NCBI GenBank assembly: GCA_021733945.1
Contig: JAIPJX010000008.1
Location: forward strand, 12,975-76,974
Direction of reading: 5' to 3'
DNA from: Verrucomicrobiota bacterium
GTDB taxonomy: Bacteria; Verrucomicrobiota; Verrucomicrobiia; Limisphaerales; SIBE01
Length of the DNA stretch: 64,000 nucleotides
This document shows, in pieces, positions 16,453 to 55,633 of the stretch. Every line of letters begins with the position of its first letter. Positions within the stretch are counted from its first letter, which is position 1. The position numbers were made by a program, and so were the translations under genes. The notes beneath the pieces are model-generated. The model did not search any database. It had not been told where the DNA came from and saw only the letters and a list, made by a program, of their open reading frames with translations.

Positions 16453-16458
16453 TCGAGT

Positions 16459-23816: not shown

Positions 23817-24353
23817 ATGCACGATTTAGACACAGTTCGACGCTGGTATTGTGTTCGAAGCACCTGTGGCTATGAATTGCGAGCTGCGGAGTTGTTGAGC
23901 CGTTCTGTGGGGAATCTTAAGGCTGCAATCGGGGAGGTTGACGTTTTTTGTCCCACTCTTCGAAGGCACATGCGAGTAGGAGGGCATCGTCGTCAGATTC
24001 TTGCCCCCCTGTTTCCAGGTTATTTCTTCAGCCGCTTCAATTTGGGAGTTGCGGCCCGGTTTGTTTCCAGTCGCCCTGGGGTCATAGGGTTGGTTCGATT
24101 TGGGGAGGAACCGGAGTCCGTTTCCGATCGAGTCATCGACGAGCTCAGGGAGACGGAATTTGACTCCGAACTGCATTGTGAAAGATTTTCACCTGGGCAA
24201 CACCTCACCGTTTCCGAAGGTCCGTTCGCGGGTATGGAAGTCGAATACGTTGCCTCGCTCAACGACGGACAGAGAGCGCTGCTTCTGGTGGAGTATCTGC
24301 ACCAAAGGGTGAATTTAGTTATTGAACAAACCTCGTTGGAAGCCGCAGCCTGA
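23817..24353 (+). CDS. NusG paralog (RfaH/UpxY-type specialised transcription antiterminator)
   Basis: NGN-like N-half (WYCVRSTCGYELRAAELL..., VFCPT..., LFPGYFFSRFNL) and KOW-like C-half (GQHLTVSEGPFAGMEVEYV). First gene of the island. ATG 23817 sits one codon inside the track's TTG 23814. Confidence 0.7.
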   Translation: MHDLDTVRRWYCVRSTCGYELRAAELLSRSVGNLKAAIGEVDVFCPTLRRHMRVGGHRRQILAPLFPGYFFSRFNLGVAARFVSSRPGVIGLVRFGEEPESVSDRVIDELRETEFDSELHCERFSPGQHLTVSEGPFAGMEVEYVASLNDGQRALLLVEYLHQRVNLVIEQTSLEAAA

Positions 24354-24393
24354 GGTGGTTCGTCGATTTTGGGGCAACGTGTTTCCCTCTGCA

Positions 24394-25959
24394 ATGGATC
24401 CAGTCACCCAATCGGCTTCGAGCCAGCTTCCCGACTATCGGGCAAAGATCGCGGACATTGACCGACTGACCGTCATCATTGCGGCAAAGAAGGCGGAGGG
24501 AAAGAGAATTGTCCATGCCCACGGTGTGTTCGACCTCCTCCACGTGGGGCATATACGGCATCTCAAGGAAGCGAGGCAGATGGGGGATGTGCTGGTGGTG
24601 ACCCTTACCCCGGATCAGTTTGTCAACAAGGGGCCACACCGTCCGGCGTTTCCTCAGGAACTCCGTGTCGAATCGCTCGCTGCGCTTCAGATGGTTGACT
24701 ATGTAGGGGTTTCTCGATGGCCCACGTCGGTCGAAATAATCGGTCGGTTGAAGCCCGACATTTACGTCAAAGGGGCGGAGTTTAAGGAACTCGAGGATAT
24801 CACGGGTGCGGTCAGCGAAGAAGTCAAAGCTGTTCGCGGTGTGGGTGGCGAGGTGCGCTTCACGGAAGATTTAACCTTCAGTTCGTCAAATCTCCTCAAT
24901 CGTTTCTTTGGGCAGTTCTCTGCCGAAACGGAGAGCTATCTGGAACAATTTCGGCAGGGTCATTCTGCGGACGAAGTATTGGAGTGGTTGGAAAAAGTCG
25001 CACTGATCTCGCCGTTGGTGGTGGGCGAGGCAATTATTGACGAATATCAGTTCTGCCATGGCATTGGAAAATCGACGAAGGATCCGGTGCTTGCAGTCCT
25101 TCACGAAGATTTAAAGGCGTGTGCGGGGGGGAGTCTGGCGATAGCCAATCACCTGGCTGGCTTCTGCAGCAGAGTCCGGTTGGTGACGCAGTTGGGGGAA
25201 ATCGATTCTCGAGAAGAATTTGTGCGAAGTTCGCTGCGTCCAAATGTGGACGGGACCTTTCTCATAAAGTCCAAATCACCCACCATCCACAAGCGGCGGA
25301 TCATTGATAAATATTCGGGAAACAAACTGCTTGAAGTTTACCGGATGGATGACCGATCGACCTCCGGACCGAATGACGAACAGCTGGACTCGATTTTGGC
25401 GGAAGATCTTCGGGACAGCGGCCTTGATCTGTCGATCGTGGCTGACTACGGGCACGGAATGCTCAATGAGGAAACCATCCACCGGATTTCAAACGACGCT
25501 CAGTGGCTTGCTTTGAACGTGCAGTGTAATGCTGGTAACCGGGGTTTAAACCACATTTCCAAATACCCCAAGGCCGACTATGTTTGTTTGGCGAATCACG
25601 AGCTGGACATAGAGGTGCGTCACCGGGAGTTGACTCTTAAGGAACGAATTAAACTCCTCGCGAGTCGGATTCAGTGCCCTCGCTTCACAATCACGGGCGG
25701 GAGCACCGGAACGATGCACTTCGATTCCTCGAATGAATTTCATGAAGCTCCCTCCCTTGCCATGCGGGTTGTGGATCGTGTTGGTGCCGGGGACGCTGTG
25801 TTTGCGATCACCTCCCTGCTCGTGAAGATAGGGGCACCTTGGCCAATTGTGGGTTTCATAGGGAATGCGGCGGGTGGAATGGTCGTTTCAAGCCTTGGGA
25901 ACCGTGTTCCGCTAAACAAGGTCGCGTTGAGTCGGTATCTGATTTCCCTGCTGAAATAG
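24394..25959 (+). CDS. bifunctional nucleotidyltransferase (cytidylyl/adenylyl-transferase fold) + PfkB-family sugar kinase; HldE-like with swapped domain order
   Basis: N-half IVHAHGVFDLLHVGHIRHLKEARQMGDVLVVTLTPDQ...KGPHRPAFP...VDYV...PDIYVKG aligns by eye with HldE domain II. C-half is ribokinase-like (…VVDRVGAGDAVFAI…). ATG 24394 avoids overlap with the NusG paralog. Confidence 0.7.
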   Translation: MDPVTQSASSQLPDYRAKIADIDRLTVIIAAKKAEGKRIVHAHGVFDLLHVGHIRHLKEARQMGDVLVVTLTPDQFVNKGPHRPAFPQELRVESLAALQMVDYVGVSRWPTSVEIIGRLKPDIYVKGAEFKELEDITGAVSEEVKAVRGVGGEVRFTEDLTFSSSNLLNRFFGQFSAETESYLEQFRQGHSADEVLEWLEKVALISPLVVGEAIIDEYQFCHGIGKSTKDPVLAVLHEDLKACAGGSLAIANHLAGFCSRVRLVTQLGEIDSREEFVRSSLRPNVDGTFLIKSKSPTIHKRRIIDKYSGNKLLEVYRMDDRSTSGPNDEQLDSILAEDLRDSGLDLSIVADYGHGMLNEETIHRISNDAQWLALNVQCNAGNRGLNHISKYPKADYVCLANHELDIEVRHRELTLKERIKLLASRIQCPRFTITGGSTGTMHFDSSNEFHEAPSLAMRVVDRVGAGDAVFAITSLLVKIGAPWPIVGFIGNAAGGMVVSSLGNRVPLNKVALSRYLISLLK

Positions 25960-25970
25960 CAGGCGTCCGA

Positions 25971-25982
25971 GGCGGTAGGGTT
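25971..25982 (+). promoter_or_regulatory. ops/JUMPStart-like element GGCGGTAGGGTT
   Basis: Matches the enterobacterial RfaH ops GGCGGTAGnnTG at 9 of 10 defined positions. Lies on the non-template (+) strand in the 151-nt gap before the next gene, 1.6 kb downstream of the NusG paralog. Confidence 0.3.
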
Positions 25983-26110
25983 GTGTTGAAATCCGGATGA
26001 TCGATGGTCCTCGGGCATCGGTCCAAAAATCCGGAGCACCTTGGGAATGGGTATATTCCCGAAACTTCCATCGCAATTCGGAAACACCTTTGAATTATCT
26101 GAATCTATCA

Positions 26111-27121
26111 ATGAAAGAAGTGGATGCTGAGGGCAAAACGGTCCTTGTTACGGGCGGGGCCGGATATGTTGGAGCGGTGCTGGTGCCCCGCCTCTTGGAA
26201 CAAGGCTTCAGGGTCAAAGTTCTGGATCTGTTTATTTACGGGGATGACGTGCTGAGGGGGGTGCAAGGGAATTCGAACCTTGAGCAAATCCGGGGTGATA
26301 TACGAGATCAGAAACTGCTTCGAGAAACGATGCGGGGGTGTTATTCGGTGATTCATCTGGCCTGCATTTCCAATGATCCAAGCTTTGAGTTGGATCCCGA
26401 GTTGGGGCGGTCGATTAATTTCGATGCGTTTGGACCTCTGGTCGATATCGCGATTGAATCCGGGGTTCAACGATTCATCTACGCTTCTTCATCGAGCGTC
26501 TATGGACTGAAAAGCGAGTCCGATGTTACTGAGGATCTTGCGCTGGAGCCCCTGACGGATTATTCAAAATACAAGGCCCTCTGTGAGGAGATCCTGCTCG
26601 AAAAGAGGACCTCCAATTTCACCACACTCATTCTCCGACCAGCTACGATTTGCGGTTACTCCCCGCGATTGCGGCTGGATCTGACCGTGAACATCCTCAC
26701 GAGCCACGCTTTTCATAACCGGTTGATCACGGTGTTTGGCGGAACCCAGATGCGCCCGAATCTGCATATCGAGGATATGGCGGCTCTCTACGTCAAATCC
26801 CTGAAGCTACCGGCTGAATCGATTGACGGAAAGATCTACAACGCCGGATATGAGAATCATCGGGTTAGTGAAATCGCCATGATTGTCAAGTCTTTTGTTG
26901 GACCGGATGTCCAGATTGTGACAAAATCCACGGATGATAATCGTTCATACCACATTTCATCCGAGAAGATCCGACGGGAGCTGGACTTTATACCCAAACA
27001 TACCCTTCAGGATGCCGTAAGTGGTCTGGTTGCTGCGTTCAACCAAAATCTCGTGCCGGACGCATTGACCAAAGACATCTACTACAATATTCGCAAGATG
27101 CAGGGCCTTTCTCTCGCGTGA
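26111..27121 (+). CDS. NAD-dependent nucleotide-sugar epimerase/dehydratase (extended SDR)
   Basis: ATG 26111. Rossmann TGGAGYVG, catalytic YSKYK. The longer track start 25997 adds non-protein-like sequence. Confidence 0.75.
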   Translation: MKEVDAEGKTVLVTGGAGYVGAVLVPRLLEQGFRVKVLDLFIYGDDVLRGVQGNSNLEQIRGDIRDQKLLRETMRGCYSVIHLACISNDPSFELDPELGRSINFDAFGPLVDIAIESGVQRFIYASSSSVYGLKSESDVTEDLALEPLTDYSKYKALCEEILLEKRTSNFTTLILRPATICGYSPRLRLDLTVNILTSHAFHNRLITVFGGTQMRPNLHIEDMAALYVKSLKLPAESIDGKIYNAGYENHRVSEIAMIVKSFVGPDVQIVTKSTDDNRSYHISSEKIRRELDFIPKHTLQDAVSGLVAAFNQNLVPDALTKDIYYNIRKMQGLSLA

Positions 27122-27942
27122 CAGAGCAGAACCAAGACCTAGCGGTGATGTGCAGAGCCATTCGAACCCGTTTGGTGGAGATGTCCCATCAGGCTGGGGT
27201 ACCTCATTTGGGTTCGTCGTTATCTTGTGTCGAAATCCTGGCAGCCGCTTATTGGGGGGGGTTGAACCTCGATCCCTCCTGTCCGGATGACCCGGACCGG
27301 GACCGGTTTATTCTGAGCAAAGGACATGCGGCGTCCACGCTTTACGCGGCACTCGCGCTCAGGGGATTTTTTCCGCTTTCGTTGCTGGATGATTTTGCCA
27401 AGGCTGGAAGTCGGTTTCCTGAACATCCGAGTCCTCATTGCCTTCCGGGCGTCGAAGTTGCCACAGGGTCGCTTGGTCACGGTTTGTCGTTGGCGCTTGG
27501 GATGGCTCTGGCGGGCCGAATCCAGGCTCGAAAATTTCGTTCGTTCGCAGTCTTGAGTGATGGCGAGTGCAACGAGGGAACCGTTTGGGAGGCAGCCTTG
27601 TTCGCTGGAGGGCAGAAACTGGATCGCGTTGGTGTTATTATCGATTACAACAAATGGCAGGCCACGGGACGAAGCAACGAAGTGATGGCGTTGGAACCCA
27701 TGCGGGAGAAGTGGAATAGTTTCGGGTGGAGCACCTATGAGATTGATGGGCATGATTTGAAGGCGCTCGGGTCAACCATTCGGGCGGTTCCGGATGGGAC
27801 CGGAAAACCGGTTGCCGTCGTGGCTCATACGGTCAAGGGAAAGGGTGTGTCGTTCATGGAAGACGACAACAACTGGCATTATCGCGTTCCCTCTGCGAGT
27901 GAGTTGGCGGAGGCAAAACGAGAAATCGAGTCACTCGCATGA
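27118..27942 (+). CDS. transketolase, N-terminal (TPP-binding) subunit
   Basis: 274 aa. ...HLGSSLSCVEIL..., GSLGHGLSLALGMALA, LSDGECNEG. GTG start overlapping the upstream stop. Confidence 0.85.
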   Translation: MTEQNQDLAVMCRAIRTRLVEMSHQAGVPHLGSSLSCVEILAAAYWGGLNLDPSCPDDPDRDRFILSKGHAASTLYAALALRGFFPLSLLDDFAKAGSRFPEHPSPHCLPGVEVATGSLGHGLSLALGMALAGRIQARKFRSFAVLSDGECNEGTVWEAALFAGGQKLDRVGVIIDYNKWQATGRSNEVMALEPMREKWNSFGWSTYEIDGHDLKALGSTIRAVPDGTGKPVAVVAHTVKGKGVSFMEDDNNWHYRVPSASELAEAKREIESLA

Positions 27943-28880
27943 GAAACGCGTTTGCTGCGGAGATGGCAGATCTTGCTGAGGCGGATCAACGCATCGTTCT
28001 TATGTCGGGGGATATAGGAAATCGCCTCTTCGACCGGTTCAAAAACTGCTATCCGAAACGTTTTTTGAATTGTGGCGTTGCCGAGGCGAACATGGTCAGC
28101 ATGGCTGCCGGAATGGCGATGTGCGGGTTCAGGCCAGTTGCCTACACGATAGCTTCCTTCATGACCAGTCGTTGCTTCGAGCAGATTCGAGTTGATCTTT
28201 GTTATCATAATGTTCCGGTGGTCATCGTCGGAGTTGGCGCAGGACTTTCCTATGCCGCCAACGGCCCGACTCACCACAGTTGTGAGGATGTTGCCATTTT
28301 ACGGGCGCTCCCTCACATCACTGTGATTTGTCCCGCTGATCCGATTGAGACTCGCCTTGCCCTCAAAGCGGCGCTTGCGAACGACGGACCCTGTTACATT
28401 CGCTTGGGAAAAAAGGGGGAGCCGAACCTGCATGGAAACATTCCGGAATTCCTGATCGGAAAAGGCATCGTTGTTCATAGAGGCTCGGGGGTTTGCCTTC
28501 TCGGGACAGGGACAATCCTTCCCGTCGCCGTTGAGGCAGCAGAACGTCTCGGGAAGGACGGGATTCGACCGGAAGTTGTGAGCCTGCACACGGTCAAGCC
28601 ACTCGATGAAGAGCTCCTTTTCGATGTCTTCTCACGTTTCGAAGTTGTTGTAACGGTTGAGGAGCACAGCGTTATTGGCGGACTTGGCAGTGCGGTGGCC
28701 GAGTGGATTGCGGATCATCCGTTTCTGAAGGGGCGCCTCTACCGAATTGGCACTGCAGATAGGTTTATCCACGAAGCGGGAGGTCAGGAGCATGCCCGAA
28801 AACACTTTGGCCTCACTCCGGAAGCGATTGCCCAGAAAGTAACCAGCTGGGTCCGCGGAGGGGCGGTGGAGGTCAAATGA
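27939..28880 (+). CDS. transketolase, C-terminal (pyrimidine-binding) subunit
   Basis: 313 aa. ...NCGVAEANMVSMAAGMA..., ...EEHSVIGGLGSAVAE... ATGA overlap with the N-subunit gene. Confidence 0.85.
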   Translation: MRNAFAAEMADLAEADQRIVLMSGDIGNRLFDRFKNCYPKRFLNCGVAEANMVSMAAGMAMCGFRPVAYTIASFMTSRCFEQIRVDLCYHNVPVVIVGVGAGLSYAANGPTHHSCEDVAILRALPHITVICPADPIETRLALKAALANDGPCYIRLGKKGEPNLHGNIPEFLIGKGIVVHRGSGVCLLGTGTILPVAVEAAERLGKDGIRPEVVSLHTVKPLDEELLFDVFSRFEVVVTVEEHSVIGGLGSAVAEWIADHPFLKGRLYRIGTADRFIHEAGGQEHARKHFGLTPEAIAQKVTSWVRGGAVEVK

Positions 28881-29926
28881 AAACGCTTGCTGCAGTCCTC
28901 GTCGAAACGGGACGGCCTTTGGAATTGGCAGAACTTGAAGTCCCCACCCTACAGGCGGGACAGGTTCTGGTGGATATCGCCTTTAGCGGTGTCTGCCATA
29001 CCCAGCTGCTGGAGGCTAGGGGATACCGCGGCAACGATCCATTCCTGCCTCATTGCATGGGGCATGAAGGAAGTGGGAGGGTAATCGAAGTCGGACCCGA
29101 AGTCTCCAAGGTCAAATCCGGCGACGAGGTGGTGCTCTCCTGGATCCAGGGAACGGGAGCAAATGTCCAGAGCACGATTTACAAATGGAATGGTCGTGCG
29201 GTAAATGCGGGTGCCGTTACCACGTTTAGTCGTCAATCCATTATAAGTGAGAATCGCCTGACCCGGTTGCCGGCTCATGTTCCGACGGAGGCAGCAGCGC
29301 TCCTTGGGTGTGCTATTCCGACTGGGTTCGGTTCGGTTTTGAATACAGCCCAGGCGCGCCCTGGCCAGAGCATAGCCGTTTTTGGGGTTGGAGGAGTTGG
29401 GCTATGCGCGGTAGTGGCCGCTGCCATGGTCGGATGTAAGCCGATCATCGCCGTGGATGTGTTGGCGCACAAATTGGAATTGGCGAAACTGGCTGGGGCA
29501 ACTGACATAGTCATGGCTTCTTCAGGCGACCCCTTGCAGGCGATCCGCCGCCTGATCCCGGACGGGATAGATCTAGCCGTTGAAGCGACCGGGCGCCCCG
29601 AGGTGATGGTTCAGGCTTTGGCCGCAGTCAGACGAAGAGGCGGAACTTCGATTGTCATTGGAAATGCACGGAAGGGTGAGCGCCTCAGTTTGGATCCCGG
29701 CGAGTTTAACCAAGGCAAGCGAATACTCGGAACCTGGGGTGGAGACAGTAGTCCGGACATTGATTTTCCTCGGTACGCAAAACTCCTGGTTTCGTCAAAA
29801 CTGAATCTGCCGGCCCTTCTTGGGCGAATCTATTCGCTGGAATCAATCAATGAGGCTTTGGAAGGTCTTGAATCCGGGCAGGTCGCAAGGCCCCTGATCG
29901 ACATGAGGCTCGGAGCACCGTGTTGA
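28877..29926 (+). CDS. zinc-dependent alcohol dehydrogenase family (MDR) oxidoreductase
   Basis: 349 aa. GVCHTQL, CMGHEGSGRV, Rossmann AVFGVGGVG. Confidence 0.8.
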   Translation: MKTLAAVLVETGRPLELAELEVPTLQAGQVLVDIAFSGVCHTQLLEARGYRGNDPFLPHCMGHEGSGRVIEVGPEVSKVKSGDEVVLSWIQGTGANVQSTIYKWNGRAVNAGAVTTFSRQSIISENRLTRLPAHVPTEAAALLGCAIPTGFGSVLNTAQARPGQSIAVFGVGGVGLCAVVAAAMVGCKPIIAVDVLAHKLELAKLAGATDIVMASSGDPLQAIRRLIPDGIDLAVEATGRPEVMVQALAAVRRRGGTSIVIGNARKGERLSLDPGEFNQGKRILGTWGGDSSPDIDFPRYAKLLVSSKLNLPALLGRIYSLESINEALEGLESGQVARPLIDMRLGAPC

Positions 29927-29948
29927 AATTCCCTGACTCCCCCTTTCG

Positions 29949-30572
29949 ATGTTAATAGGCCTGGACTTTGACAATACCATAATCTGCTATGACTCCGTGT
30001 TTCATCAGGTCGCGGTAGAAAGGGCGCTCATCCCCTCCAGTGTGCCAGCGATCAAAGAGGCGATCCGGAACTATTTGCGATCTGCGGGAAAAGAAAGAGA
30101 ATGGACCGAGCTTCAAGGCTATGTTTATGGAAAGCGGATCACTGAGGCGGAAGCCTTTCCCGGACTGTTCGAGTTCCTTGGAGGGTGCAAGGATCGAAAC
30201 ATCGATTTCATTGTGATCAGTCACAAAACGCAGTTTCCATTTCAGGGGCCACCTTACGATTTGCACGTTTCGGCGCGAAATTGGATGGAACAAAAGGGCT
30301 TCTTCGATTCGAGTCGTATCGACTTCAGTGAAGATCGACTTTTTTTCGAGCCCACAAAACAGCGCAAATTGAACCGAATCGCTGCGATGGGCTGTCAGCA
30401 TTTTGTAGACGATTTGCCTGAAATCTTTGCCGACCCCGAATTTCCCGTAGGTGTGCACGGGATCCTGTTTGATCCAGCTTCAAGAGGCACTGAAGTGCCG
30501 GGGGTTCAGTCGGTTGTTTCCTGGACGGAGGTCGGAGGCATTGTTTTCTCAATCGGAGAAGTAACACTTTGA
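29949..30572 (+). CDS. HAD-superfamily hydrolase (probable sugar phosphatase)
   Basis: 207 aa. HAD motif I at the extreme N-terminus (LIGLDFDNTI). Confidence 0.6.
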   Translation: MLIGLDFDNTIICYDSVFHQVAVERALIPSSVPAIKEAIRNYLRSAGKEREWTELQGYVYGKRITEAEAFPGLFEFLGGCKDRNIDFIVISHKTQFPFQGPPYDLHVSARNWMEQKGFFDSSRIDFSEDRLFFEPTKQRKLNRIAAMGCQHFVDDLPEIFADPEFPVGVHGILFDPASRGTEVPGVQSVVSWTEVGGIVFSIGEVTL

Positions 30573-31591: not shown

Positions 31592-31601
31592 AAAGGCTCA
31601 G

Positions 31602-32603: not shown

Positions 32604-32611
32604 GGTTCGCT

Positions 32612-33274
32612 ATGGCATACATAGATTTTATAACAACAATTCACAGATCTACGAAGCGCGATTACGTTGCACGGGTGAATGAGTTCGACAAAGCCAAGGC
32701 GGCGGAGAAAGCCGGGCAGTTTGGGTTTGATTACTGGGATGGAGACCGAAAATTCGGATACGGCGGATACCGTTACGATGGTCGATGGCACCGGGTGGCG
32801 GAGATGATGGCCAAACACTATGATCTCAAGGAGGGGGCGCGTATTCTGGATGTGGGCTGTGGGAAGGGGTTTCTGCTTTATGAATTCACCCAGGTGATTC
32901 CGGGTGCGCAGGTGGTTGGAATCGACGTTTCTGCCTATGCGATTCAGAACGCCAAGGAGGAGGTGCGGCCCCAGTTGGGTCTTGGAAATGCGAACGCACT
33001 TCCGTTTGCCAACGAGTCGTTCGATCTGGTTTACTCAATCAACACGCTTCACAATCTCTACATCAACGATCTGTGGATGGCGCTGAAAGAAATCGAGCGC
33101 GTGGGGCGTGAATCGAAGCATGTCACTGTTGAAGCCTATCGCAACGAAAGAGAAAAGGTGAATTTGCTTTACTGGCAATTGACCTGTCGTGCGTTTCACA
33201 CGCCGCATGAATGGGAGTGGATTTATCAACAGGCCGGCTACTCCGGGGATCACTCATATATCACGTTCGAGTAG
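32612..33274 (+). CDS. class I SAM-dependent methyltransferase
   Basis: 220 aa. Motif I ILDVGCGKGF. Confidence 0.75.
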   Translation: MAYIDFITTIHRSTKRDYVARVNEFDKAKAAEKAGQFGFDYWDGDRKFGYGGYRYDGRWHRVAEMMAKHYDLKEGARILDVGCGKGFLLYEFTQVIPGAQVVGIDVSAYAIQNAKEEVRPQLGLGNANALPFANESFDLVYSINTLHNLYINDLWMALKEIERVGRESKHVTVEAYRNEREKVNLLYWQLTCRAFHTPHEWEWIYQQAGYSGDHSYITFE

Positions 33275-33314
33275 TCTGGCGGATGAGCGCACCCTCGATC
33301 ATGGGAAATTCCGT

Positions 33315-37090: not shown

Positions 37091-37216
37091 TTTATTGAAT
37101 TTTGTGGCCTGAATCCCACGAAGCCATGGATGTCACCGGATCTTTCGTGGTTCTCGATTCGTCCATGCCGGGGTGATCGGCTTGACGGGGCCCGTGTGGT
37201 TCGAATACAAAAAACT

Positions 37217-38196: not shown

Positions 38197-38296
38197 AATC
38201 GACGTGAGGGCGGAAGCAGTCGAAAACACGGAGGATTGGCATAACTCGATATTGCAGGCAGGTTTCCGAGATTGAGGCGCTTTGGGTTGATTAAGT

Positions 38297-48500: not shown

Positions 48501-51500
48501 TCCTGATTGCTTTGGGTGTGTCCTTCTTCAAGGGGGGGGACCCGGAGATGGCGAAGGCGGTTTTCGGGCAGGTGCTGGTGCGCGAACCGGAGCATGCTCT
48601 GGCAAAGGAGAATCTGGAGGTGATTCGACGGAGCATGGAGCAGGGGGCCGGCTCCGGCGCGCCTGTTCCTCAGGCGGCTCCTGAGGAGGTTGATTCCGCC
48701 GCGAAAGAAATTCTGGAGTTGATCGAGAGCGCCGATCGTCATTTTGAGGAGGGGCGGTACTTTGATGCGAAGGAACACCTGCTGAAGGTGCTTCAGCTGA
48801 GATCCGACGACATTCGGGCACTGACGTCGCTGGCCGCCGTGGCCGATGCCCTGGGCGATGTGGCTGGGTCCCGACATTATCTGCAGGAGGCTCTGCGGGT
48901 GAAGGGCGAGGATGCGGATCTTTATTTGCAGTGGGCTCTCGTGGAACTGAAGCAGGATGATGTTGAGCGGTTCGAGGAGTTGTTGGCCAAGGCCTTTGCA
49001 GTGGATCCCAAACATCACGCCTCTCTCAAGCTCCTTGCCGATCTGAATTTTCGGAGCGATCGCCTGAAGGCCGCAGCGGAGTCCTACACGACGATTCTGA
49101 CGCATTACCCCGACGATGTGGAGGCGATGGTTTCCCTGGGGGCCTGCTTCATGAACGATGGAGATTTGGAGACCGCGCGGATGGTGTTGACACGGGCGTT
49201 GGAGCTGGATGCGAGCTGCGCCAGTGCGAAGGAGCATCTCGAAACCATTGCCAGCCGGCTCGGCGACACGGGGGCCCGTCCCGGAGCGAGTGGTTCGGCC
49301 GTTGATTCGCAGGACGGGCCAAAAACTGCGCCGGAGACGATTCAACCAGCGGTTTCCAAAAAGAAGAACTCGGAGCGGGTCCAGGACCTGGTGGATGAAG
49401 CTGATTTTTTCAGCGAAGTGGGAAACCTGGAAGCATCGCTTGAGACCCTGGAACGGGCTTTGGAACTTGCGCCCCGGGACATGGGCCTGCTTTCGGCGGT
49501 GGGCAGCCTGCACTATACGATGGGGGACTACGAGGCTTCGCGCGCGAAGTTTCGGAACGTGATCGAATCCAGACCCCGGGATCCGGAGGCTTACACGAGA
49601 CTGGCCATGGCGTGCCTGCGGCTGGATCGGATCGAGGAGATGGAGGCGGCCCTGGGCATTGCGTTGGAGATTGATCCGGAAAACCGGGAGGCGCTCAAGT
49701 TTCTTGCGAAAACAAATCTGGAGGCGGAGCGGGTCCGGGACGCCGGGCGCGCCTATGCAAAACTTCTGGAGGAGCAGCCCGATGACATGGAATCGCTCCT
49801 GGCGCTGGGGTTGTGTTTCTTCAAGGGCGGGGATCTTCCGGCAGCGCGCATGGTGTACGGCCGGGTGTTGGAGTATGACGCGGAAAATCCGACGGCTGTT
49901 GAGAATTTGGCCCAGATCGACGCCAGGGAGAATCGTTCAACCCCAAAAAGAGGGAAGTCCGAAGCAGAGGAAGCCAGGGAACGTTCCGGGAAGGTGAATG
50001 AATTGATGGCTGCGGCCGAGGGGGCGTTCAAGGCCAAGAACCTGCCAGCCGCGAGGGATGCGTTGAAGAATGCCGTTGAGCTGGCTCCCAATGCGATCGA
50101 ACTCCTGGCTGCGTTGGGAAGCCTCCATTTTCAACTGGACGAAATGCCCGAGGCGCGCGAGGTGTTGTGCCGATTGGTGGAGCTGGCTCCGGCGGAACCC
50201 GCCAAATGGGTTCAGCTGGCTTTGACGCACTATCAGCTGAACGAGATTGAGGACTTCGAGAAGGCGCTGAAACGGGCTCTGGAATTGGATCCGGATCATT
50301 TCGAGGCGTTGCGCTTGTTGGCGCACATGAGTTTCAAGCATGGAAACTTCCGGGACGCAGCGCAGACGTATGGTCGCATCCTGAAGCGGGCTCCGAACGA
50401 CGTGGAGATTCTGTCTGCCTTGGGAGTTTGCTTTTTCAAGGGCGGGGACATGGATGCCGCCGGCATGATGTTTGAGAAGGTTCTCGAAGTGGAGCCCGGA
50501 AACGCGATCGCGACCGAAAACCTGAGCGTCATCGAAAACCGGAGTGCAGGCAATTCCGCAGGAGCGTTGCCGAGTGTTTCGAATCCCGGGAATGAGGGGG
50601 AAGGTGGCGCTTCCGACGAACCTGCATCGAAGCGCATGGAAAGGGTCGATGAGTTGCTCGTGGATGCGGACAGGTGCGCCACCAGCGGGGATGTTTCCGG
50701 CGCGTGTGATCGGTTGAGGAAGGCGTGCGAACTTGAGCCCGAAACCCATGAGATTCATGCTGCCCTGGGCAGCTTGCTCTACCAGCTTGGGCAGTGGGAC
50801 GCGGGGGTCGCGTCGCTCAAGCGCGCCACGCAACTGGCTCCGAATTCCGCCGATTACCACACGCGGCTCGCGATCAGCCTTCTGTCCGTGGATAGCGTCG
50901 GCGAGTTTGAAGAAGCCCTGCAAAAGGCCCTGACCCTTGATCCCAGCCACCGGCCGGCTCTGCGGTTGCTGGCGGATCTGAATCTTCGCGGAGGTAATTT
51001 CAAGGACGCGGCACACACCTATCACCGGTTGCTTTTGCAGACACCCGATGATGTGGATGTCATGCTTCCGATGGCGGTGTGTTTCTACAAGAACGGGGAT
51101 CCGCAGGCTGCGCGAATGGTTTTCAACCGGATCCTGACACTCGATCCCGAGCACGCCATCGCGCGTGAGAATCGGGATTTGCTGGATCGTGAGGAAGCGG
51201 GTTCGGGTGCTGCAGGCGCTACATCCGGGGGAAGTGTCCCGACCGTGGCACCGGCCTCTGTGGCTGTGCCGGCGGTTGGAAAGGTTTCGGTGCTCTGGGA
51301 GGGATCCCAGTTTGTTCATCATTCACTGGCGCTCGTGAATCGTGAGCTCTGTTTCCAGTTGCTGCAGATGGGCCATGACGTTTCGATCCTCCCTTACGAA
51401 CCGGACCAATTCGGGGCGGAGATGGATCCGCGATTTGTGCGGCTGGCGGGGGCGGTCCGGGCGCCCCTTTCAAAAGCGCCTGAAATCCACCTGCGCCATC

Positions 51501-54500
51501 AGTGGCCTTTCAATCCGGTTCCTCCCAAGGAGGGGCGATGGGTGGTGATCCAGCCCTGGGAATATGGGATGCTTCCCAAGGAATGGCTTCCGGTTCTCAG
51601 GGAGCAGGTCGACGAAATCTGGACCTATAGCAATTTTGTTCGGGATACCTACATTCGATCCGGAGTCCCTGCTGAGAAGGTTTTTGTGGTTCCGTGTGGG
51701 GTGGATCCGGACCGGTTTCATCCCGGAGCATCTCCGGCGAAGCTTGCCACGCAGAAGAAGTATAAGTTCCTGTTCGTGGGTGGTTTGATTCATCGCAAGG
51801 GAATCGACCTGTTGCTCAACACCTACATGAACCGGTTCCGGGCCAGTGATGATGTTTGTCTGGTCATCAAGGCATTCGGCAGCGGGTGGTATCGGGACGA
51901 CAAGGTGAGGGCTCAGATTAAAAAGATTCAACAGACGCCCGGCAGTCCGGAGATCCTGCTTTTGGATCGGGACATGGAGCCCGCTGAGTTGCCGGGTCTG
52001 TACACTACGTGCGATTGTCTGGTGCATCCCTATCGTGGGGAAGGCTTCGGGTTGCCCGTGCTTGAGGCGATGGCGTGCGAATTGCCGGTGATTGTGACCG
52101 GGGGCGGATCGACGGATGATTTTGCCACCGACGAACTGGCCAGCCGGGTGGCTGCGGTTCGAAAGAATTTGGGAACCCGGGTCATGGACCTGGAGCTGGC
52201 GGGTGAGGGCTGGTTGTTGGAACCCGACCCGGCCGACCTGGGTGAGCGCATGACCTGGATGGTGAATCATCCGGATGAAGCCGCGGCAATGGCGCGGCGG
52301 GCCAGTGAGGTGGCACGCACCAAATGGTCCTGGGCTGCGGGGGCGGCCAGGGCGGAGGCGCGACTCAGGGCCTTATCCAAATGCAATGAGCTGCCGATGC
52401 GGTTCACCTCGCAACCTGGGCAAAGCGCGTCCGGGCAGAACCCTGGGACGGTGGTCGAAAAAGAAGTGGGTGATCAACGGTCGTTGGGTAAAGAGCCGGG
52501 ATCCGCATCGGCCGGGAACGGGGTTGATGTTGTGTGGGAGGGACCCCAGTTCAGCCATCATTCTCTGGCACTGATCAATCGCGAGGTTTGTCTCAGTTTG
52601 ATCGCGGGCGGAACTGCGGTCAGGGTGCAGTCCGTCGGGGACAAGGTGTTTGGCCCCGAGGCGGACCCGAGGTTTCAGGAACTCGAGAAGCGCATGAATG
52701 GAGTCGGGCCTTCGGCCTCGGCGTTGCGGGTGCGCCATCAGTGGCCCATGAATCTTGAGCCGCCCCTCGACGGACCCTGGATCGTCATGCAGCCTTGGGA
52801 ATTCGGGGCGATTCCGAGGGATTGGCTCGAGCCAATGCAACACCGGGTTGATGAGATTTGGGCGTATACGGAATTTGTGCGGCAGACCTACATCCAATGC
52901 GGGGTGCCGCCGGAGAAGGTGTTTGTCATCCCGTGCGGAGTGCACCCGGGGAAATTTCATCCCGAGGTAACCCGGGCGAACCTGGCGACTCGCAAGAAAT
53001 TCAAGTTCCTTTTTGTGGGCGGCACGATTCTGAGGAAGGGGCCCGATGTCCTGTTGAACGCCTACCTTCGCACATTCACTGCGCAGGACGATGTCTGTCT
53101 GGTGATCAAGGATTTTGGAGGCAGGGATGTGTACAAGGGGCAGACGATCGAACGATCGATTCGTGAGGCGCAGGCGAGGTCCGGGGCACCGGAGATCCTT
53201 CATCTGACCGAGGACATGACGCCCGACGAGTTGCCGGGACTTTACGCGGCCTGCGATTGTCTGGTGCATCCGTACCGGGGGGAGGGCTTCGGGTTGCCGG
53301 TGTTGGAGGCCATGGCCGTGGGACTGCCTGTTATTGTGACTGAGGGTGGGTCCACGGACGATTTTGCGCCAGCCAACGTTGCCTACCGAATTCCTTCAAA
53401 ATCGGTCGAAGTACCCAACTGGGCTGGTCCGGAACTGGTCGGGAGCCCGACTTGGCTGGAGCCCGATCAGGGTGTGTTGGAGCAAGTCATGCGTGCTGTG
53501 TTTCAGGATCCTGAAGCCGGACGCAGGATGGGGCGGGCTGCGAGTGCCCATGTTCACCAATCGTGGACCTGGGATTGCGCCGCGACCCGGGTTTTGGAAC
53601 GTCTGAAGAGCCTCGCGAGCCGGACGGAACTGCCCGTTCGGTTCCAGGGCCAGGGCATGATTCCGCCGTCCCTGATTCCCGGGGGAAACGCCGAAATTAA
53701 GGTTCCTGCGGCGGGAGAGGTCGGGTCTCTCGAGAAGGTGCACGCGTTGGTTGAGAAAAGGAAATTTCTGAAAGCGTGGAACGCGACACTGGACGCGATT
53801 CGGCAGCGGCCCTTTCATCCGGACGCCTACTTGCAGATGGTGGATATTGCGTTGCGTGCGGAGGATATCCGCCAGGCTCTTGCCTGTGCGGAGCGATTGA
53901 TCCGAATGACACCCAACTGGACGACCGCACGGCGGATCCACGATTCCCTCAAGAAGGAACGTAAACCGAAGAAATCCAAAGTCAGGTGGACGCCTCTTCC
54001 CAAGCCGGGCGCGCGTCCGAGCCTGAGCGTCTGCCTGATTGTCCGGAATGAGGAGGAACACATCGGGCGCTGCCTGGCATCGGTCAAGGACATAGCGACG
54101 CAGATCGTGGTGGTGGACACCGGATCGAGCGACCGGACGGTGGCGATTGCGAAGGAGTACGGGGCCGAAGTTTATCATTTTGAATGGAACGACGATTTCA
54201 GTGACGCTCGGAACGAGGGACACCGGCATGCGCGCGGGGATTGGGTCCTGATTCTGGATGCGGACGAAGAGTTGCCGGTCGAAAGCCATAAACAGCTCCT
54301 GGAGGACATGGCTGTGGAAAATGTGCTCGGGTACCGGATTCCGATCTGCAACATTCATGAAGCCGATGACTCCGTGACCTATGTCCCGCGCCTGTTCCGA
54401 AACGCGCCGGCGCTCTTTTTTGTGGGTCGGGTGCACGAGCAGATTTACGCGAGCGTGATCGCACGGAAGTCGGAGTGGAACATGGAAGCGGTTCTGGGTA

Positions 54501-55633
54501 CGGCCAGAATCAATCATTACGGATACGATCCGGGCCTGGTGAAGCGTCGGCAGAAGGTCCGGCGAAACCTTCGGCTGCTCGAGCGTGCGATTCAGGAGAT
54601 GCCGAACGAGGCGGCGCTCGTGATGAATTACGGTCTGGATCTTGTGAATGACGGTCGGCTCGAGGAGGGGCTTGTCCAGTATCGCAACGCGGTCCGTATC
54701 ATGGAGCCGCACAAACCGGATGCCATTCTTCCCGAGGTGCGTGAGCGCCTCCTGACAATCTTCGGGGTGCATCTGCTGAGAGCCGACCGATTCGAAGAAG
54801 TCGTGCAGGTGATGACTTCACGACTTGCCAATGACTGCGGTCCAACGGCCTCGCTGCACTTTCTGGCCGCTGCCGGATTGATGAAGCTGGACCGGCCTGC
54901 GGAGGCGATTCCCCATCTTCAGGCGTGCCTGGCCAAGCGCGGGCAACCCACGCTCACGCCCCCTTGCAAGCAGGTGTTCCGCGGTGGTCCCAGGCATTTG
55001 CTTGCGGAATGTTTTTGCAGGACCAAGCAGGTTGCAGAGGCTGAGGAGGCCTTCAAGGAAGGACTCAAGGAGGATCCGGATTCGGTGGGGCTCCTGCGTG
55101 ATTACGCCTATTTTCTGCATAAAAGTGAACGATCCCTGGAGGCAATGCAGGTGTTGCATCAATTTCTGGGCTCCGGGGTCGACGATGAGCATATCTGGCA
55201 TTTGGGATGTCTGATTTCAAACAGTCGACCCGAGTTCGCCGAGTTCGCCTCCGATTGGACGGCGGAAGCCATCAAGTTTCATCCTGAACATCCGGGGATT
55301 GTGCGGGCCCGGGGGGAAGCGTTGCTGAAAGCGGGTGAACTCCGGGAATCGGTGCCGTTTTTCAAAAAGGCACCGCATCGGGAGGAGTCGGACGCTCTGG
55401 CCGCCGTGGTTCTCGCGGAGTTGGGCGCAGGGGATCCGGTGTCCGGAGTGGGATCTGCGAACGAAGCCGATGTCAGCCGGGAGTTCATCGCCTGGTACCG
55501 CCGTCTCCTGGCCACCAAAGCGCAGAAAGCCGTCCGTGCGATCAACGGAAAACTGGAAATTCTTGCGGGGGTTTTGCCGACTGCGAGCCGGATGCTGAAG
55601 CAGGCACTGGAGGAAGCCGGTTCGCCTGAGTGA
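45518..55633 (+). CDS. giant multi-glycosyltransferase/TPR protein (3371 aa from ATG 45518; 3458 aa from track start 45257)
   Basis: One uninterrupted frame. In order: GT2 (~45545-46200), GT4-like (~46720-47950), 5 TPR super-modules (~48070-51200), two paralogous GT4 domains (~51280-52400 and ~52520-53650), a short TPR stretch, GT2 (~54010-54600), helical/TPR tail. The first 87 codons of the track ORF are R/G/S-rich and look non-coding. Confidence 0.8.
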   Translation: MDKKCQSRGPLVSAIVSTYNSEGYLRGCLRDLVGQTLFAQGKLEIFVIDSGSQQNEGRVVEEFQRQFPSIRYLRTEREPIYAAWNRAIPLLSGKYITNANTDDAHRADALELLAAALDRFPEAGLAYGDFVNSSVPNDSFDDPHVLREVRFPAYEPSDVLFYCPIGCHPMWRRDVFEQLGNFDPRHWSVGDYEFLLRFVDAGMIAVRVPELLSLFFENPSGIQFKSAQETYQQFLNVRHEYRIKIPVEKIYEADPADPSAIARAWVALGNKAMHHRIPWFPNPASELPYAEFCYRRALEACPSFMPALRNLCVLWSLQKEETKVAGLLLRLPSGTATEVKSKLETEGLRLVHVDVVPKGQTLKAEGSEPHPSAPKEVAARRAEVMDGQSPGFKNAPQSRERFRILLTLDDRGEGRVGAFGPGVVAEELVRRGHDVSVLYAAGTHPSSRTPYFLEETTSPGGVRLFGVYNGPVTGCDPENPDRETLDPEMIRCFGEVIERCKPGLVHFHTFQGLTLALAAEAKRKGLVTIYSPHNYHLIDPALYLLGADLSAWTGTDFFRNSEWVARRPDLRGAYARRAEAGRAVLNEHLDLTLAGSYRARDLFEDFCGRHGRIAVVHQGYPGSERVPGEVGGESGRTGPLRVGFLGPIVPREGLHILAAALQRVSPGGVEAHVFGVVDAAYKEQVMAVDGRRVIRWRGAIEPEALGAIAKETDLVVVPSLWEAGAGSEIVDALAMGRPVVAARIGSAADFVVDGFNGRLYRSDSIDELAEILEELVRDRALVERLSRNCRLPHAFGDYVDHVVSIYHRLLKGERVLPGTASLVFPSSPTKPLPQSEPAGGGAASAPADLAEAMHHPLDLLFARASSDLESGNLAAARNVLIEILAQAPDSFEARVSLGSVLFHLEDFEGSWVHYDRALSLKKDDAGLCVQAALVCLKLGRMSDFERVIELALKLEPEHVGALKLLGDLNLQEGRFADAGRCYSRILSREPGNCDILIALGVSFFKGGDPEMAKAVFGQVLVREPEHALAKENLEVIRRSMEQGAGSGAPVPQAAPEEVDSAAKEILELIESADRHFEEGRYFDAKEHLLKVLQLRSDDIRALTSLAAVADALGDVAGSRHYLQEALRVKGEDADLYLQWALVELKQDDVERFEELLAKAFAVDPKHHASLKLLADLNFRSDRLKAAAESYTTILTHYPDDVEAMVSLGACFMNDGDLETARMVLTRALELDASCASAKEHLETIASRLGDTGARPGASGSAVDSQDGPKTAPETIQPAVSKKKNSERVQDLVDEADFFSEVGNLEASLETLERALELAPRDMGLLSAVGSLHYTMGDYEASRAKFRNVIESRPRDPEAYTRLAMACLRLDRIEEMEAALGIALEIDPENREALKFLAKTNLEAERVRDAGRAYAKLLEEQPDDMESLLALGLCFFKGGDLPAARMVYGRVLEYDAENPTAVENLAQIDARENRSTPKRGKSEAEEARERSGKVNELMAAAEGAFKAKNLPAARDALKNAVELAPNAIELLAALGSLHFQLDEMPEAREVLCRLVELAPAEPAKWVQLALTHYQLNEIEDFEKALKRALELDPDHFEALRLLAHMSFKHGNFRDAAQTYGRILKRAPNDVEILSALGVCFFKGGDMDAAGMMFEKVLEVEPGNAIATENLSVIENRSAGNSAGALPSVSNPGNEGEGGASDEPASKRMERVDELLVDADRCATSGDVSGACDRLRKACELEPETHEIHAALGSLLYQLGQWDAGVASLKRATQLAPNSADYHTRLAISLLSVDSVGEFEEALQKALTLDPSHRPALRLLADLNLRGGNFKDAAHTYHRLLLQTPDDVDVMLPMAVCFYKNGDPQAARMVFNRILTLDPEHAIARENRDLLDREEAGSGAAGATSGGSVPTVAPASVAVPAVGKVSVLWEGSQFVHHSLALVNRELCFQLLQMGHDVSILPYEPDQFGAEMDPRFVRLAGAVRAPLSKAPEIHLRHQWPFNPVPPKEGRWVVIQPWEYGMLPKEWLPVLREQVDEIWTYSNFVRDTYIRSGVPAEKVFVVPCGVDPDRFHPGASPAKLATQKKYKFLFVGGLIHRKGIDLLLNTYMNRFRASDDVCLVIKAFGSGWYRDDKVRAQIKKIQQTPGSPEILLLDRDMEPAELPGLYTTCDCLVHPYRGEGFGLPVLEAMACELPVIVTGGGSTDDFATDELASRVAAVRKNLGTRVMDLELAGEGWLLEPDPADLGERMTWMVNHPDEAAAMARRASEVARTKWSWAAGAARAEARLRALSKCNELPMRFTSQPGQSASGQNPGTVVEKEVGDQRSLGKEPGSASAGNGVDVVWEGPQFSHHSLALINREVCLSLIAGGTAVRVQSVGDKVFGPEADPRFQELEKRMNGVGPSASALRVRHQWPMNLEPPLDGPWIVMQPWEFGAIPRDWLEPMQHRVDEIWAYTEFVRQTYIQCGVPPEKVFVIPCGVHPGKFHPEVTRANLATRKKFKFLFVGGTILRKGPDVLLNAYLRTFTAQDDVCLVIKDFGGRDVYKGQTIERSIREAQARSGAPEILHLTEDMTPDELPGLYAACDCLVHPYRGEGFGLPVLEAMAVGLPVIVTEGGSTDDFAPANVAYRIPSKSVEVPNWAGPELVGSPTWLEPDQGVLEQVMRAVFQDPEAGRRMGRAASAHVHQSWTWDCAATRVLERLKSLASRTELPVRFQGQGMIPPSLIPGGNAEIKVPAAGEVGSLEKVHALVEKRKFLKAWNATLDAIRQRPFHPDAYLQMVDIALRAEDIRQALACAERLIRMTPNWTTARRIHDSLKKERKPKKSKVRWTPLPKPGARPSLSVCLIVRNEEEHIGRCLASVKDIATQIVVVDTGSSDRTVAIAKEYGAEVYHFEWNDDFSDARNEGHRHARGDWVLILDADEELPVESHKQLLEDMAVENVLGYRIPICNIHEADDSVTYVPRLFRNAPALFFVGRVHEQIYASVIARKSEWNMEAVLGTARINHYGYDPGLVKRRQKVRRNLRLLERAIQEMPNEAALVMNYGLDLVNDGRLEEGLVQYRNAVRIMEPHKPDAILPEVRERLLTIFGVHLLRADRFEEVVQVMTSRLANDCGPTASLHFLAAAGLMKLDRPAEAIPHLQACLAKRGQPTLTPPCKQVFRGGPRHLLAECFCRTKQVAEAEEAFKEGLKEDPDSVGLLRDYAYFLHKSERSLEAMQVLHQFLGSGVDDEHIWHLGCLISNSRPEFAEFASDWTAEAIKFHPEHPGIVRARGEALLKAGELRESVPFFKKAPHREESDALAAVVLAELGAGDPVSGVGSANEADVSREFIAWYRRLLATKAQKAVRAINGKLEILAGVLPTASRMLKQALEEAGSPE
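48070..51200 (+). repeat. five tandem ~213-aa TPR super-modules (protein-level repeat) inside the giant ORF
   Basis: The landmark CFFKGGD (variants CFMNDGD, CFYKNGD) recurs at 48524, ~49148, 49817, 50432 and ~51082 (period 615-670 nt). Each module ends ...A.EN(L/R).... Confidence 0.8.
51280..53650 (+). repeat. tandem duplication of a ~400-aa GT4 domain inside the giant ORF
   Basis: VLWEGSQFVHHSLALVNRELC... versus VVWEGPQFSHHSLALINREVC... Both contain CDCLVHPYRGEGFGLPVLEAMA. The DNA around 52021 versus 53261 is ~80% identical by eye. Confidence 0.85.

Follow-up and report, generated by a model that had tools for sequence, protein, structure and literature searches.

What are 19 consecutive genes, mostly for sugar activation and glycosyl transfer, doing between a flagellin gene and flgL, and which molecule of the cell receives their product? 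The question is raised by a 64,000-nt stretch of DNA from an uncultured member of Verrucomicrobiota (hereafter the window, meaning the whole stretch that was analysed), where both the list of open reading frames (ORFs) and an independent gene caller place 19 co-directional genes (g01–g19, + strand, 23,817–55,633) between the second of two flagellin genes and the convergent flgL, just as a preliminary description of this DNA had stated. That description took the island for a cytoplasmic flagellin O-glycosylation system, and according to the data presented below this is what it most probably is: one transferase domain is homologous to the flagellin-modifying enzyme GmaR, the clade of this domain is linked to flagellin genes, relatives carry nonulosonate genes at the same place, the sugar genes are swapped between strains and low in G+C, and lipid-carrier or export genes are absent. 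The sequence features by which a flagellin glycosylation island is recognized are present, namely a site in the flagellar cluster, soluble glycosyltransferases (GTs) together with sugar genes, a homolog of a proven enzyme, no lipid-linked route, and variability. The island is a known kind of system, very probably flagellin glycosylation; new here are the NusG paralog at its head with a leader motif, the strain-swapped cassette between fixed breakpoints and the giant fusions of many GT domains with tetratricopeptide repeats (TPRs).

A GmaR-like module and its linkage to flagellin genes

The acceptor is indicated by the last family 2 (GT2) domain of g19, a protein of 3,458 aa. Among all solved structures the best phmmer match of its residues 2,917–3,113 is GmaR (22ao_A; E 4.7e-33, about 40% identity over 197 residues), with the DADE (DxD) motif aligned between the two proteins, and the next match is SunS, a peptide S-glycosyltransferase (E 6.5e-18). 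TPRs follow this domain (Pfam, residues ~3,170–3,400) and weakly match chain 7x9r, which we take to be a C-terminal construct of GmaR. In Listeria GmaR O-GlcNAcylates flagellin and has the same succession of a GT domain and TPR (PMC9638930). In L. monocytogenes the flagellin O-GlcNAc transferase is at the same time the anti-repressor of MogR; g19 resembles it in the homologous GT2 domain, in the preserved DxD motif and in the TPRs behind them, but here the domain is the seventh GT module, set within a 3,458-aa protein and having TPRs on both sides. Beyond the GT domain and the first TPRs g19 gave no match to GmaR, including its C-terminal MogR-binding anti-repressor domain. Since the module sits inside so large a protein and no anti-repressor match was found, it may work like the GT part of GmaR but should not be considered its ortholog. 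We regard it as a candidate for the flagellin-initiating transferase.

Linkage of this GT2 clade to flagellin genes was estimated in a scan of one genome per species, in which two conserved GT2 motifs from the TPR-GT2-TPR alignment served as patterns and the loci found were confirmed against the module. A strong flagellin ORF lies within 10 kb in 25 of the 80 GmaR-like loci, which represent many phyla, and 21 of the 80 belong to cyanobacteria or archaea, having no bacterial flagella. Linkage by chance is estimated at a few percent. Next to flagellin genes of at least three phyla one also meets the module order of g18 and g19. In one Verrucomicrobiota metagenome-assembled genome (MAG; locus L013) the series flgI-flgJ-flgN-flgK-flgL-fliW-flagellin is followed by a single 3,455-aa ORF with the order GT2, GT9, TPR, GT2, GT4, GmaR-like GT2, TPR; in an Ignavibacteria MAG (L014) the same module order is distributed over ORFs of 3,144, 1,023 and 501 aa, directly after which comes flagellin; and in a Sedimentisphaerales MAG the modules of g18 and g19 stand beside flgL and flgI.

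The proposed cytoplasmic character of the system agrees with what the island lacks. Neither among its proteins nor on the entire source contig were Wzx, Wzy, ABC exporter or polyprenyl-phosphate transferase families matched, and a hydropathy scan revealed no polytopic protein among the island ORFs, none of which has more than one hydrophobic 19-mer, so that the preliminary description was right in seeing none of these components. Three hydrophobic 19-mers were registered in total (in g02, g06 and g19), each within the fold of a soluble enzyme, such as the Rossmann fold of the Zn-dependent alcohol dehydrogenase. The source contig, a 66,775-bp product of metagenome assembly (run SRR12088351), is covered by the window nearly completely, and according to the gene calls it carries only flagellar genes outside the island; on this contig no export or lipid-carrier genes for the same pathway adjoin the window. 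Genes for a lipid carrier, flippase or oligosaccharyltransferase may be present elsewhere in the genome.

An exchangeable sugar cassette and two nearly constant megaproteins

Exchange of the sugar genes became evident from comparison with sister contig ERR13967261_503, which belongs to the same species (FlhA and FlhF 99%, flagellins 98–99% identical). DNA identity falls from ~96% to ~75% at position 24,014, inside the gene g01, then to ~60%, and is back to 99% at 41,032, 17 nt before g18, of which the sister contig spans the N-terminal 481 aa (98.5% identical). The NusG paralog is only 87% and g02 only 60% identical, and the other sugar genes are replaced: the sister cassette of ~9 kb codes for a g16-like GT (36% identical), a Sulfotransfer_3 protein, methyltransferases, a short-chain dehydrogenase/reductase (SDR, 58%) and a DegT aminotransferase. 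Variability among relatives, which the preliminary description had proposed to check, is therefore documented within one species for the segment 24,014–41,031. The variable cassette has a G+C content of 0.50–0.55 versus 0.57–0.61 in the flanks and g19. Enterobacterial flagellin glycosylation islands comprise 2.4–23 kb and 1–18 proteins, have lower G+C and vary within species (PMC4875605), so that the swapped cassette with its lower G+C matches their hallmarks. The window's own flagellin 2 was also found in a second assembly with mostly the same neighbours, and the arrangement is therefore not a one-off product of assembly.

In less close relatives (L023 and L024/L045, FlhA ~80%) two flagellins are followed by an ortholog of the NusG paralog (57% identical) and then by genes for a PseB-like dehydratase, NeuB, CMP-nonulosonate synthetase, an aminotransferase and a C-methyltransferase. 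Nonulosonate genes beside flagellin are a classic signature of flagellin glycosylation. Scans for related loci with g02 and FlgK, which needed shared exact peptide words, found no relatives. One more relative (L022, FlhA 82%) has between flhF and fliW a 933-aa protein (14135–16936, − strand) combining FkbM-type and Methyltransf_24 methyltransferase domains with Sulfotransfer_1, that is, another modification enzyme linked to a flagellar cluster.

Pfam assigns 14 genes of the island (g02–g15) to sugar pathways next to the NusG paralog, in line with the approximately 14 enzymes of sugar activation and modification counted earlier (Table 1; starts of g03–g09 are those of the independent caller). 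The product of g02 is HldE-like with reversed domain order, and both NCBIfam models of HldE domains match it far below cutoff. Its kinase half is nearest to heptose-7-phosphate kinases, and HldE domain II and cytidylyltransferases are equally near to its nucleotidyltransferase half; PDB matches are likewise cytidylyltransferases and a heptose-7-phosphate kinase. One can assume that g02 activates a sugar phosphate, either of a heptose or of a polyol/ketose. A hypothetical nucleoside diphosphate (NDP)-heptose route would fit the split transketolase, the haloacid dehalogenase (HAD)-like protein and the GT9 domain of g18, and a route by way of a CDP-polyol or a ketose is no less possible. The full ADP-heptose route might hypothetically lead from transketolase to sedoheptulose-7-phosphate, then through the HldE-like and HAD proteins to transfer by GT9; it is not put more strongly, as the island lacks GmhA and cytidylyltransferases are just as near to the nucleotidyltransferase. 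No match to an isomerase of SIS/GmhA type was obtained with Pfam or NCBIfam among the 19 island proteins, and a housekeeping copy of GmhA may exist elsewhere in the genome. An RmlA-type transferase is also missing from the sugar pathway of the island. The 4,6-dehydratase, two C-methyltransferases, cupin, RmlD-like reductase and SDR point to a C-methyl-branched 6-deoxyhexose, and the product would be decorated by O-methylation and possibly by sulfation. From this set of enzyme families we infer, as did the preliminary description, a complex, multiply decorated oligosaccharide.

phmmer gave nothing useful against solved structures for g07, g16 and g17; g16 and g17 were therefore placed only by structure prediction from alignments and fold search. 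All 56 homologs of g16 are annotated as hypothetical, and some carry an N-terminal TPR domain. The model built from their alignment (predicted local distance difference test score, pLDDT, 90.8) has as nearest folds Gtf3 and GtfC, cytoplasmic enzymes that extend O-glycans on serine-rich-repeat adhesins, and a weak Gtf3_C match is on record. Because of this predicted GT-B fold near Gtf3/GtfC, g16 is counted as the eighth GT of the island; Pfam itself finds exactly seven domains, which agrees with the earlier estimate of at least seven. GTs of the g16 family were also seen beside a stand-alone GT9 gene in a Geobacteraceae MAG (L053, 7009–9290) and in a taxonomically unassigned JGI metagenome contig (L052, 6307–9539). 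Their neighbours code for B12/radical S-adenosylmethionine (SAM) enzymes, aminotransferases and a formyltransferase, to which L053 adds TPR proteins and a sigma-54 activator; there is no flagellin within 8 kb of these loci, and they may represent a related protein-glycosylation cluster.

As to g17, the label "sulfotransferase-like" given to it before is reasonable but not firm. It is favoured by the profile of its large family (6,262 representatives at E ≤ 0.001), which matches one solved sulfotransferase, 3rnl, with E 2e-4, and by the best fold matches of its model (pLDDT 86.8), which are sulfotransferases; but template modelling (TM) scores of these matches are low and Pfam matches stay below threshold (E 0.1–0.2).

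The remaining two genes, g18 and g19, make up 14.6 of the island's 31.8 kb. Their products together contain seven GT domains (GT2 and GT9 in g18; GT2, GT4, GT4, GT4 and GT2 in g19), one methyltransferase domain and six homologous TPR units, and no published description of two megaproteins with such a composition was found. The TPR array of g19 extends over 1,050 residues; its five units are 29–40% identical mutually and 26–32% identical to the C-terminal TPR of g18, are joined by linkers rich in Gly, Ser, Ala and Pro, and may, together with the unit of g18 and the TPRs around the GmaR-like domain, offer many protein-binding surfaces. Among solved structures the GT9 domain of g18 matches lipopolysaccharide (LPS) heptosyltransferase II only, with a weak E-value of 6e-4, and TibC is not among its matches at E ≤ 0.01. 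In the sister strain the counterpart of g19 has 3,808 aa (L049, 8101–15581; L047, 13018–20498), with an extra GT match in its N-terminal third; over the C-terminal 2,492 aa the two proteins run colinearly with 97% identity. Pfam matches of the GT4-conflict type, considered as a sign of a defence system, lie under stronger GT4 matches and were discarded. Long ORFs on the − strand of g18 and g19 (424–539 aa; 40872–42146, 45914–47533, 49937–51322 and 53396–54772) were rejected as shadow frames in G+C-rich coding sequence, uncalled by the independent caller.

Table 1. Features of the glycosylation island and its borders (positions in the window)
Feature	Position	Strand	Basis and remarks
fliW	21,173–21,625	+	Pfam FliW, E 2e-29
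csrA	21,649–21,939	+	PF02599 call on the source contig
Flagellin 1	21,971–22,783	+	Pfam Flagellin_N and Flagellin_C
Flagellin 2	22,818–23,636	+	Pfam Flagellin_N and Flagellin_C
Leader	23,637–23,816	+	180 nt from flagellin 2 to g01; poorly conserved save one block
g01, NusG paralog (RfaH/UpxY-like), first gene of the island	23,817–24,353	+	Pfam NusG, E 2e-11
Strain-variable sugar cassette, 3' part of g01 through g17	24,014–41,031	+	17 kb; comparison with the sister contig
g02, nucleotidyltransferase–PfkB sugar kinase fusion	24,322–25,959	+	Pfam CTP_transf_like, PfkB
g03, SDR epimerase/dehydratase; g04, g05, split transketolase; g06, Zn alcohol dehydrogenase	within 26,111–32,603	+	Pfam/NCBIfam
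g07, HAD-like (DxDxT motif, weak HAD match only); g08, APH-type kinase; g09, NDP-hexose 4,6-dehydratase	to 32,603	+	Pfam/NCBIfam
g10, SAM methyltransferase; g11, g12, sugar C-methyltransferases (Methyltransf_13/14)	within 32,612–37,924	+	Pfam/NCBIfam
g13, WbuC cupin; g14, RmlD-like reductase; g15, short-chain dehydrogenase	within 32,612–37,924	+	Pfam/NCBIfam
g16, uncharacterised GT-B glycosyltransferase (predicted), in the variable cassette	38,297–39,559	+	Fold
g17, sulfotransferase-like P-loop protein	39,773–40,855	+	Profile and fold
g18, megaprotein, 1,392 aa	41,049–45,227	+	Pfam, whole protein and segments
g18 GT2	41,106–41,498	+	Pfam
g18 Methyltransf_24	42,192–42,542	+	Pfam; followed by a domain without family, before GT9
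g18 GT9, heptosyltransferase-like	43,446–44,378	+	Pfam; NCBIfam heptosyltransferase I/II/III below cutoff; PDB 1psw
g18 TPR unit	44,616–45,224	+	Pfam segments
g19, megaprotein, 3,458 aa	45,257–55,633	+	Pfam segments
g19 GT2	45,554–46,156	+	Pfam
g19 GT4	46,784–47,896	+	Pfam
g19 five tandem TPR units, ~205 aa each	48,074–51,211	+	Alignment of TPR units
g19 GT4	51,284–52,351	+	Pfam
g19 GT4	52,514–53,596	+	Pfam; followed by TPR
g19 GmaR-like GT2	54,005–54,595	+	GmaR match
g19 C-terminal TPR	54,596–55,630	+	Pfam
flgL	55,718–56,653	−	Pfam; convergent right border of the island, then flgK, flgN, rod-binding protein gene, flgI

The NusG paralog, its leader and the flagellar setting

The island is headed by g01, the orthologs of which occupy the same place directly after the flagellins in relatives. 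The Pfam NusG (NGN) domain spans its residues 10–112, RfaH models align over residues 10–176, and g01 thus has both the NGN domain and a C-terminal domain of KOW type. The best NCBIfam matches are RfaH (3e-22) and UpxY (2e-14). With RfaH of enterobacteria, UpxY of Bacteroides capsule loci and LoaP of Firmicutes g01 shares the NGN domain, its similarity to RfaH extends over the entire protein, and it opens a long putative operon of glycan genes as UpxY does. A conserved motif, a candidate cis element, lies in its leader. It differs in staying under all curated subfamily cutoffs (79 bits against 144.5 for RfaH, 54 against 100 for UpxY, 29 against 125 for LoaP and 41 against 136 for NusG) and in heading a presumed operon for flagellin modification. 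The literature search found no paper tying NusG paralogs to flagellin glycosylation, nor any published case of such an island headed by a NusG paralog behind a conserved leader motif.

The only conserved block of the leader has the core GGGGTGCGGCAGCTTTGTCTT (21 nt, 23,759–23,779), situated ~35 nt upstream of the g01 start and kept in three or four relatives where intergenic DNA has otherwise diverged. The motif occurs once in the window, and its exact 15-mer was found in L021, L023 and L024. Its GCGGCAGC core resembles by eye the ops element of RfaH, GGCGGTAG, and the block may be a candidate promoter or a recruitment site of the NusG paralog. GGCA/TGCC within the motif could form a 4-bp hairpin. 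A sigma-54 promoter was rejected for this block, as GG and GC stand two bases too close to each other and this spacing is not kept in L023 and L024, and so was a sigma-28 promoter, with only 3–4 of 8 matches in the −10 element. Rfam found no family in the region 21–25 kb, the leader included.

Of the overlaps of stop and start codons listed earlier, those at 27,939, 28,877, 30,569, 34,580 and 35,731 agree with the gene calls; the one at 27,118 is uncertain, since the independent caller starts this gene at 27,148. The intergenic gap between g15 and g16 comprises 372 nt (37925–38296) and holds a 104-aa ORF (37,961–38,275) with no family match, not called by the independent caller. The spacers in front of g17 (213 nt) and g18 (193 nt) likewise exceed what is usual within an operon, and internal promoters are therefore possible.

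Upstream of the island there are fliL/M/N/O/P/Q/R, flhB, flhA, flhF, fliW, csrA and two flagellin genes; downstream, on the − strand, flgL, flgK, flgN, a rod-binding protein gene, flgI, flgH and flgA, then two rod-protein genes (flgG/flgF-like), fliS, fliD and a sigma-54 activator. The junction of g19 and flgL recurs in three other assemblies. Both flagellins, which are presumed to be the acceptors, are short (270 and 272 aa), and the proportion of Ser and Thr in their central 70 residues is 29–33%, which is consistent with O-glycosylation though not diagnostic of it. The order fliW, csrA, flagellins is kept in all close relatives, which suggests that in this Verrucomicrobium flagellin translation is controlled by FliW-CsrA partner switching. 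A 1,007-aa ORF (7660–10683), located after presumed fliH/I/J and before putative flgD and hook genes, could code for a hook-length or FliK-like protein of unusual size. FlhA is 91% identical to that of a Caspian Sea Verrucomicrobia MAG and 80–82% identical in three further Verrucomicrobiota MAGs (one labelled Akkermansia muciniphila), two of which are apparently lake-derived; based on the identities and origins of these relatives the host is taken to be an uncultured aquatic (freshwater) Verrucomicrobium. Its population is widespread, as an identical FlgN protein was met in 46 blocks of the sequence collection.

Possible acceptors and the place of the island among known systems

A number of observations weigh against flagellin as the acceptor or limit what can be said of the system. 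All support is computational and concerns an uncultured organism represented by a metagenome contig. The GmaR/SunS-like GT2 clade includes peptide glycosyltransferases as well as cyanobacterial and archaeal members, and of the 19 loci to which the search with g18 led, only 5 had flagellar genes in the fetched flanks. Modules GT9, GT2-GT4 and GT4 follow in the same order in L006, L007, L008 and L010, with no GmaR-like GT2 and no nearby flagellin. The products of the cassette cannot be named, since GmhA-type isomerase and RmlA-type transferase are missing, g01 reaches none of the family cutoffs, and scans for sigma-70 promoters and intrinsic terminators across the island gave signals at or below shuffled background and are therefore uninformative on operon structure, a single transcript included. 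The four contigs L006–L008 and L010 are parts of MAGs labelled Ignavibacteria, Bacteroidetes (Bacteroidota) and Chitinophagaceae. Either they serve a different acceptor or the bins are mislabelled; in any case, occurring without flagellin or the GmaR-like domain, GT9, GT2-GT4 and GT4 are not flagellin-specific in themselves, and a specific tie to flagellin is seen for the GmaR-like module alone.

Taken together with the fact that TPR-GT fusions act on non-flagellar proteins too, these flagellin-free contigs allow one to suppose that flagellin is not the acceptor, or not the sole one, and that megaproteins and cassette act on different proteins (other axial proteins of the flagellum, pilins or proteins of the cell surface), which TPRs recruit. 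The TPR stretch of g19 does weakly match the repeats of O-GlcNAc transferase among solved structures, SunS as the second-best match of the GT2 domain does glycosylate a peptide, and the fold of g16 is nearest to GTs of serine-rich adhesins. However, the GT2 domain is much nearer to GmaR (E 5e-33) than to SunS (E 6.5e-18), the entire 66.8-kb contig is flagellar, flagellin immediately adjoins the modules in several phyla, and relatives have nonulosonate genes at the same site, which leaves this supposition with a small probability. An O-antigen, capsule or exopolysaccharide locus inserted into the flagellar cluster, the carrier and export genes of which lie elsewhere, is still less probable. Its enzyme repertoire would look familiar, as 4,6-dehydratase, RmlD-like reductase, WbuC, C-methyltransferases, GT2, GT4, GT9 and HldE-like proteins are common to O-antigen and LPS-core loci, and RfaH- and UpxY-type NusG paralogs are best known from LPS and capsule operons. 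But neither island nor contig has polyprenyl-phosphate transferase, flippase, polymerase, ABC exporter or polytopic protein, seven of the eight GT domains are fused with TPR arrays in soluble megaproteins, one GT2 is homologous to GmaR, and other phyla also show linkage of the module set with flagellin.

Finally, the giant ORFs themselves could be artefacts of assembly or fusion concealing several glycosyltransferase genes of ordinary size, since the contig originates from a metagenome assembly and most homologs of the C-terminal module stand alone as proteins of 600–1,100 aa. We consider the chances of this very small: the 10.4-kb frame of g19 is uninterrupted, three other assemblies made from different samples reproduce its last 2,492 aa colinearly at 97% identity, unrelated MAGs also contain single ORFs of comparable size (3,455 and 3,144 aa), and the same flagellin has the same neighbours in the second assembly.

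In the preferred reading, flagellin glycosylation, the island would consist of three units, namely control, sugar cassette and transferase. With the help of the NusG paralog RNA polymerase probably continues elongation to the end of the 31.8-kb unit, as one may expect from the analogy with RfaH and UpxY. The nucleotidyltransferase-kinase, split transketolase, Zn dehydrogenase, HAD-like protein and APH-type kinase would supply an NDP-activated heptose, ketose or polyol, and the other cassette enzymes a C-methylated 6-deoxyhexose, the cassette bringing also its own GT-B, O-methyltransferase and sulfotransferase-like enzyme. The soluble transferase unit of g18 and g19, nearly identical between strains, would hold newly made flagellin in the cytoplasm by its TPR units; the TPR-flanked GmaR-type GT2 would add the first sugar to Ser/Thr in the Ser/Thr-rich central region, and the remaining GT domains with the cassette GT would extend and decorate the glycan. 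Modified flagellin would then be exported via the flagellar type III system. A bolder proposal, which we consider rather doubtful, is that the megaproteins form an undescribed class of protein-glycan assembly lines that build a defined oligosaccharide processively on bound flagellin, with the NusG paralog ensuring read-through of the operon. The order GT2, methyltransferase, GT9, TPR, GT2, GT4, TPR array, GT4, GmaR-like GT2, TPR would in this case reflect the order or geometry of reactions, and gain or loss of modules (3,458 versus 3,808 aa) along with cassette swapping would diversify the glycan.

The flagellin glycosylation island of Pseudomonas aeruginosa has ~14 genes and the locus of Campylobacter jejuni ~50. 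The statement of the preliminary description that the present island is much larger than those described holds therefore against P. aeruginosa and enterobacterial islands (≤23 kb, 18 proteins) but not against C. jejuni, and a claim of exceeding all described islands is overstated. Islands of P. aeruginosa and P. syringae, Enterobacteriaceae, Aeromonas and Campylobacter have the same adjacency to flagellin, in P. aeruginosa likewise between flgL and fliC, and combine sugar genes and soluble GTs with absence of lipid-carrier and export genes, lower G+C and swapping within species. They differ from the present one in that here a NusG paralog stands at the head and seven of the eight GT domains reside in TPR megaproteins rather than in separate enzymes of 300–600 aa. 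Pfam scans of the island proteins gave no match to the Maf family, and no report of flagellin glycosylation in Verrucomicrobiota was found in the literature.

The same logic is found in FlmG of Caulobacter crescentus, a flagellin pseudaminyl transferase composed of TPR and GT-B, the TPR domain of which binds flagellins and is needed for efficient modification (PMC7591256). Compared by description only, it is likewise a soluble cytoplasmic GT fused with TPR and acts on short flagellins of ~270 aa (PMC7591256), and some homologs of g16 also have N-terminal TPR and C-terminal GT-B; unlike that system, the window has no nonulosonate pathway, though relatives have one at the same locus. For the GT9 domain of g18 heptose may be hypothesized as the donor. 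Like TibC and AAH, the heptosyltransferases of bacterial autotransporters, and like LPS heptosyltransferases, g18 has a GT9 domain, and an HldE-like activation enzyme is encoded in the same island, but here the route to heptose lacks GmhA and is not complete. An earlier case of O-heptosylation in the cytoplasm is known for a secreted protein (PMC4358343).

The island would extend flagellin glycosylation to Verrucomicrobiota and brings into view an architecture recurring across phyla, in which many GTs and repeated TPR units are united in polypeptides of 3,000–3,800 aa beside flagellin. Flagellin glycosylation is known mainly in pathogens and a few model bacteria, and the choice of substrate by cytoplasmic O-glycosyltransferases and the assembly of oligosaccharides without a lipid carrier are poorly understood. 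If it is true that megaproteins scaffold stepwise glycan assembly, they would be useful for work on substrate specificity and for glyco-engineering, while the NusG paralog heading the island would give operon-specific antitermination a new kind of target operon. Co-existing strains, in which near-identical flagellins and megaproteins are paired with different sugar cassettes, represent a natural experiment, and exchange of the cassette between strains of a bacterium abundant in lakes suggests that the surface of the filament is under diversifying selection, exerted most plausibly by phages or grazers.

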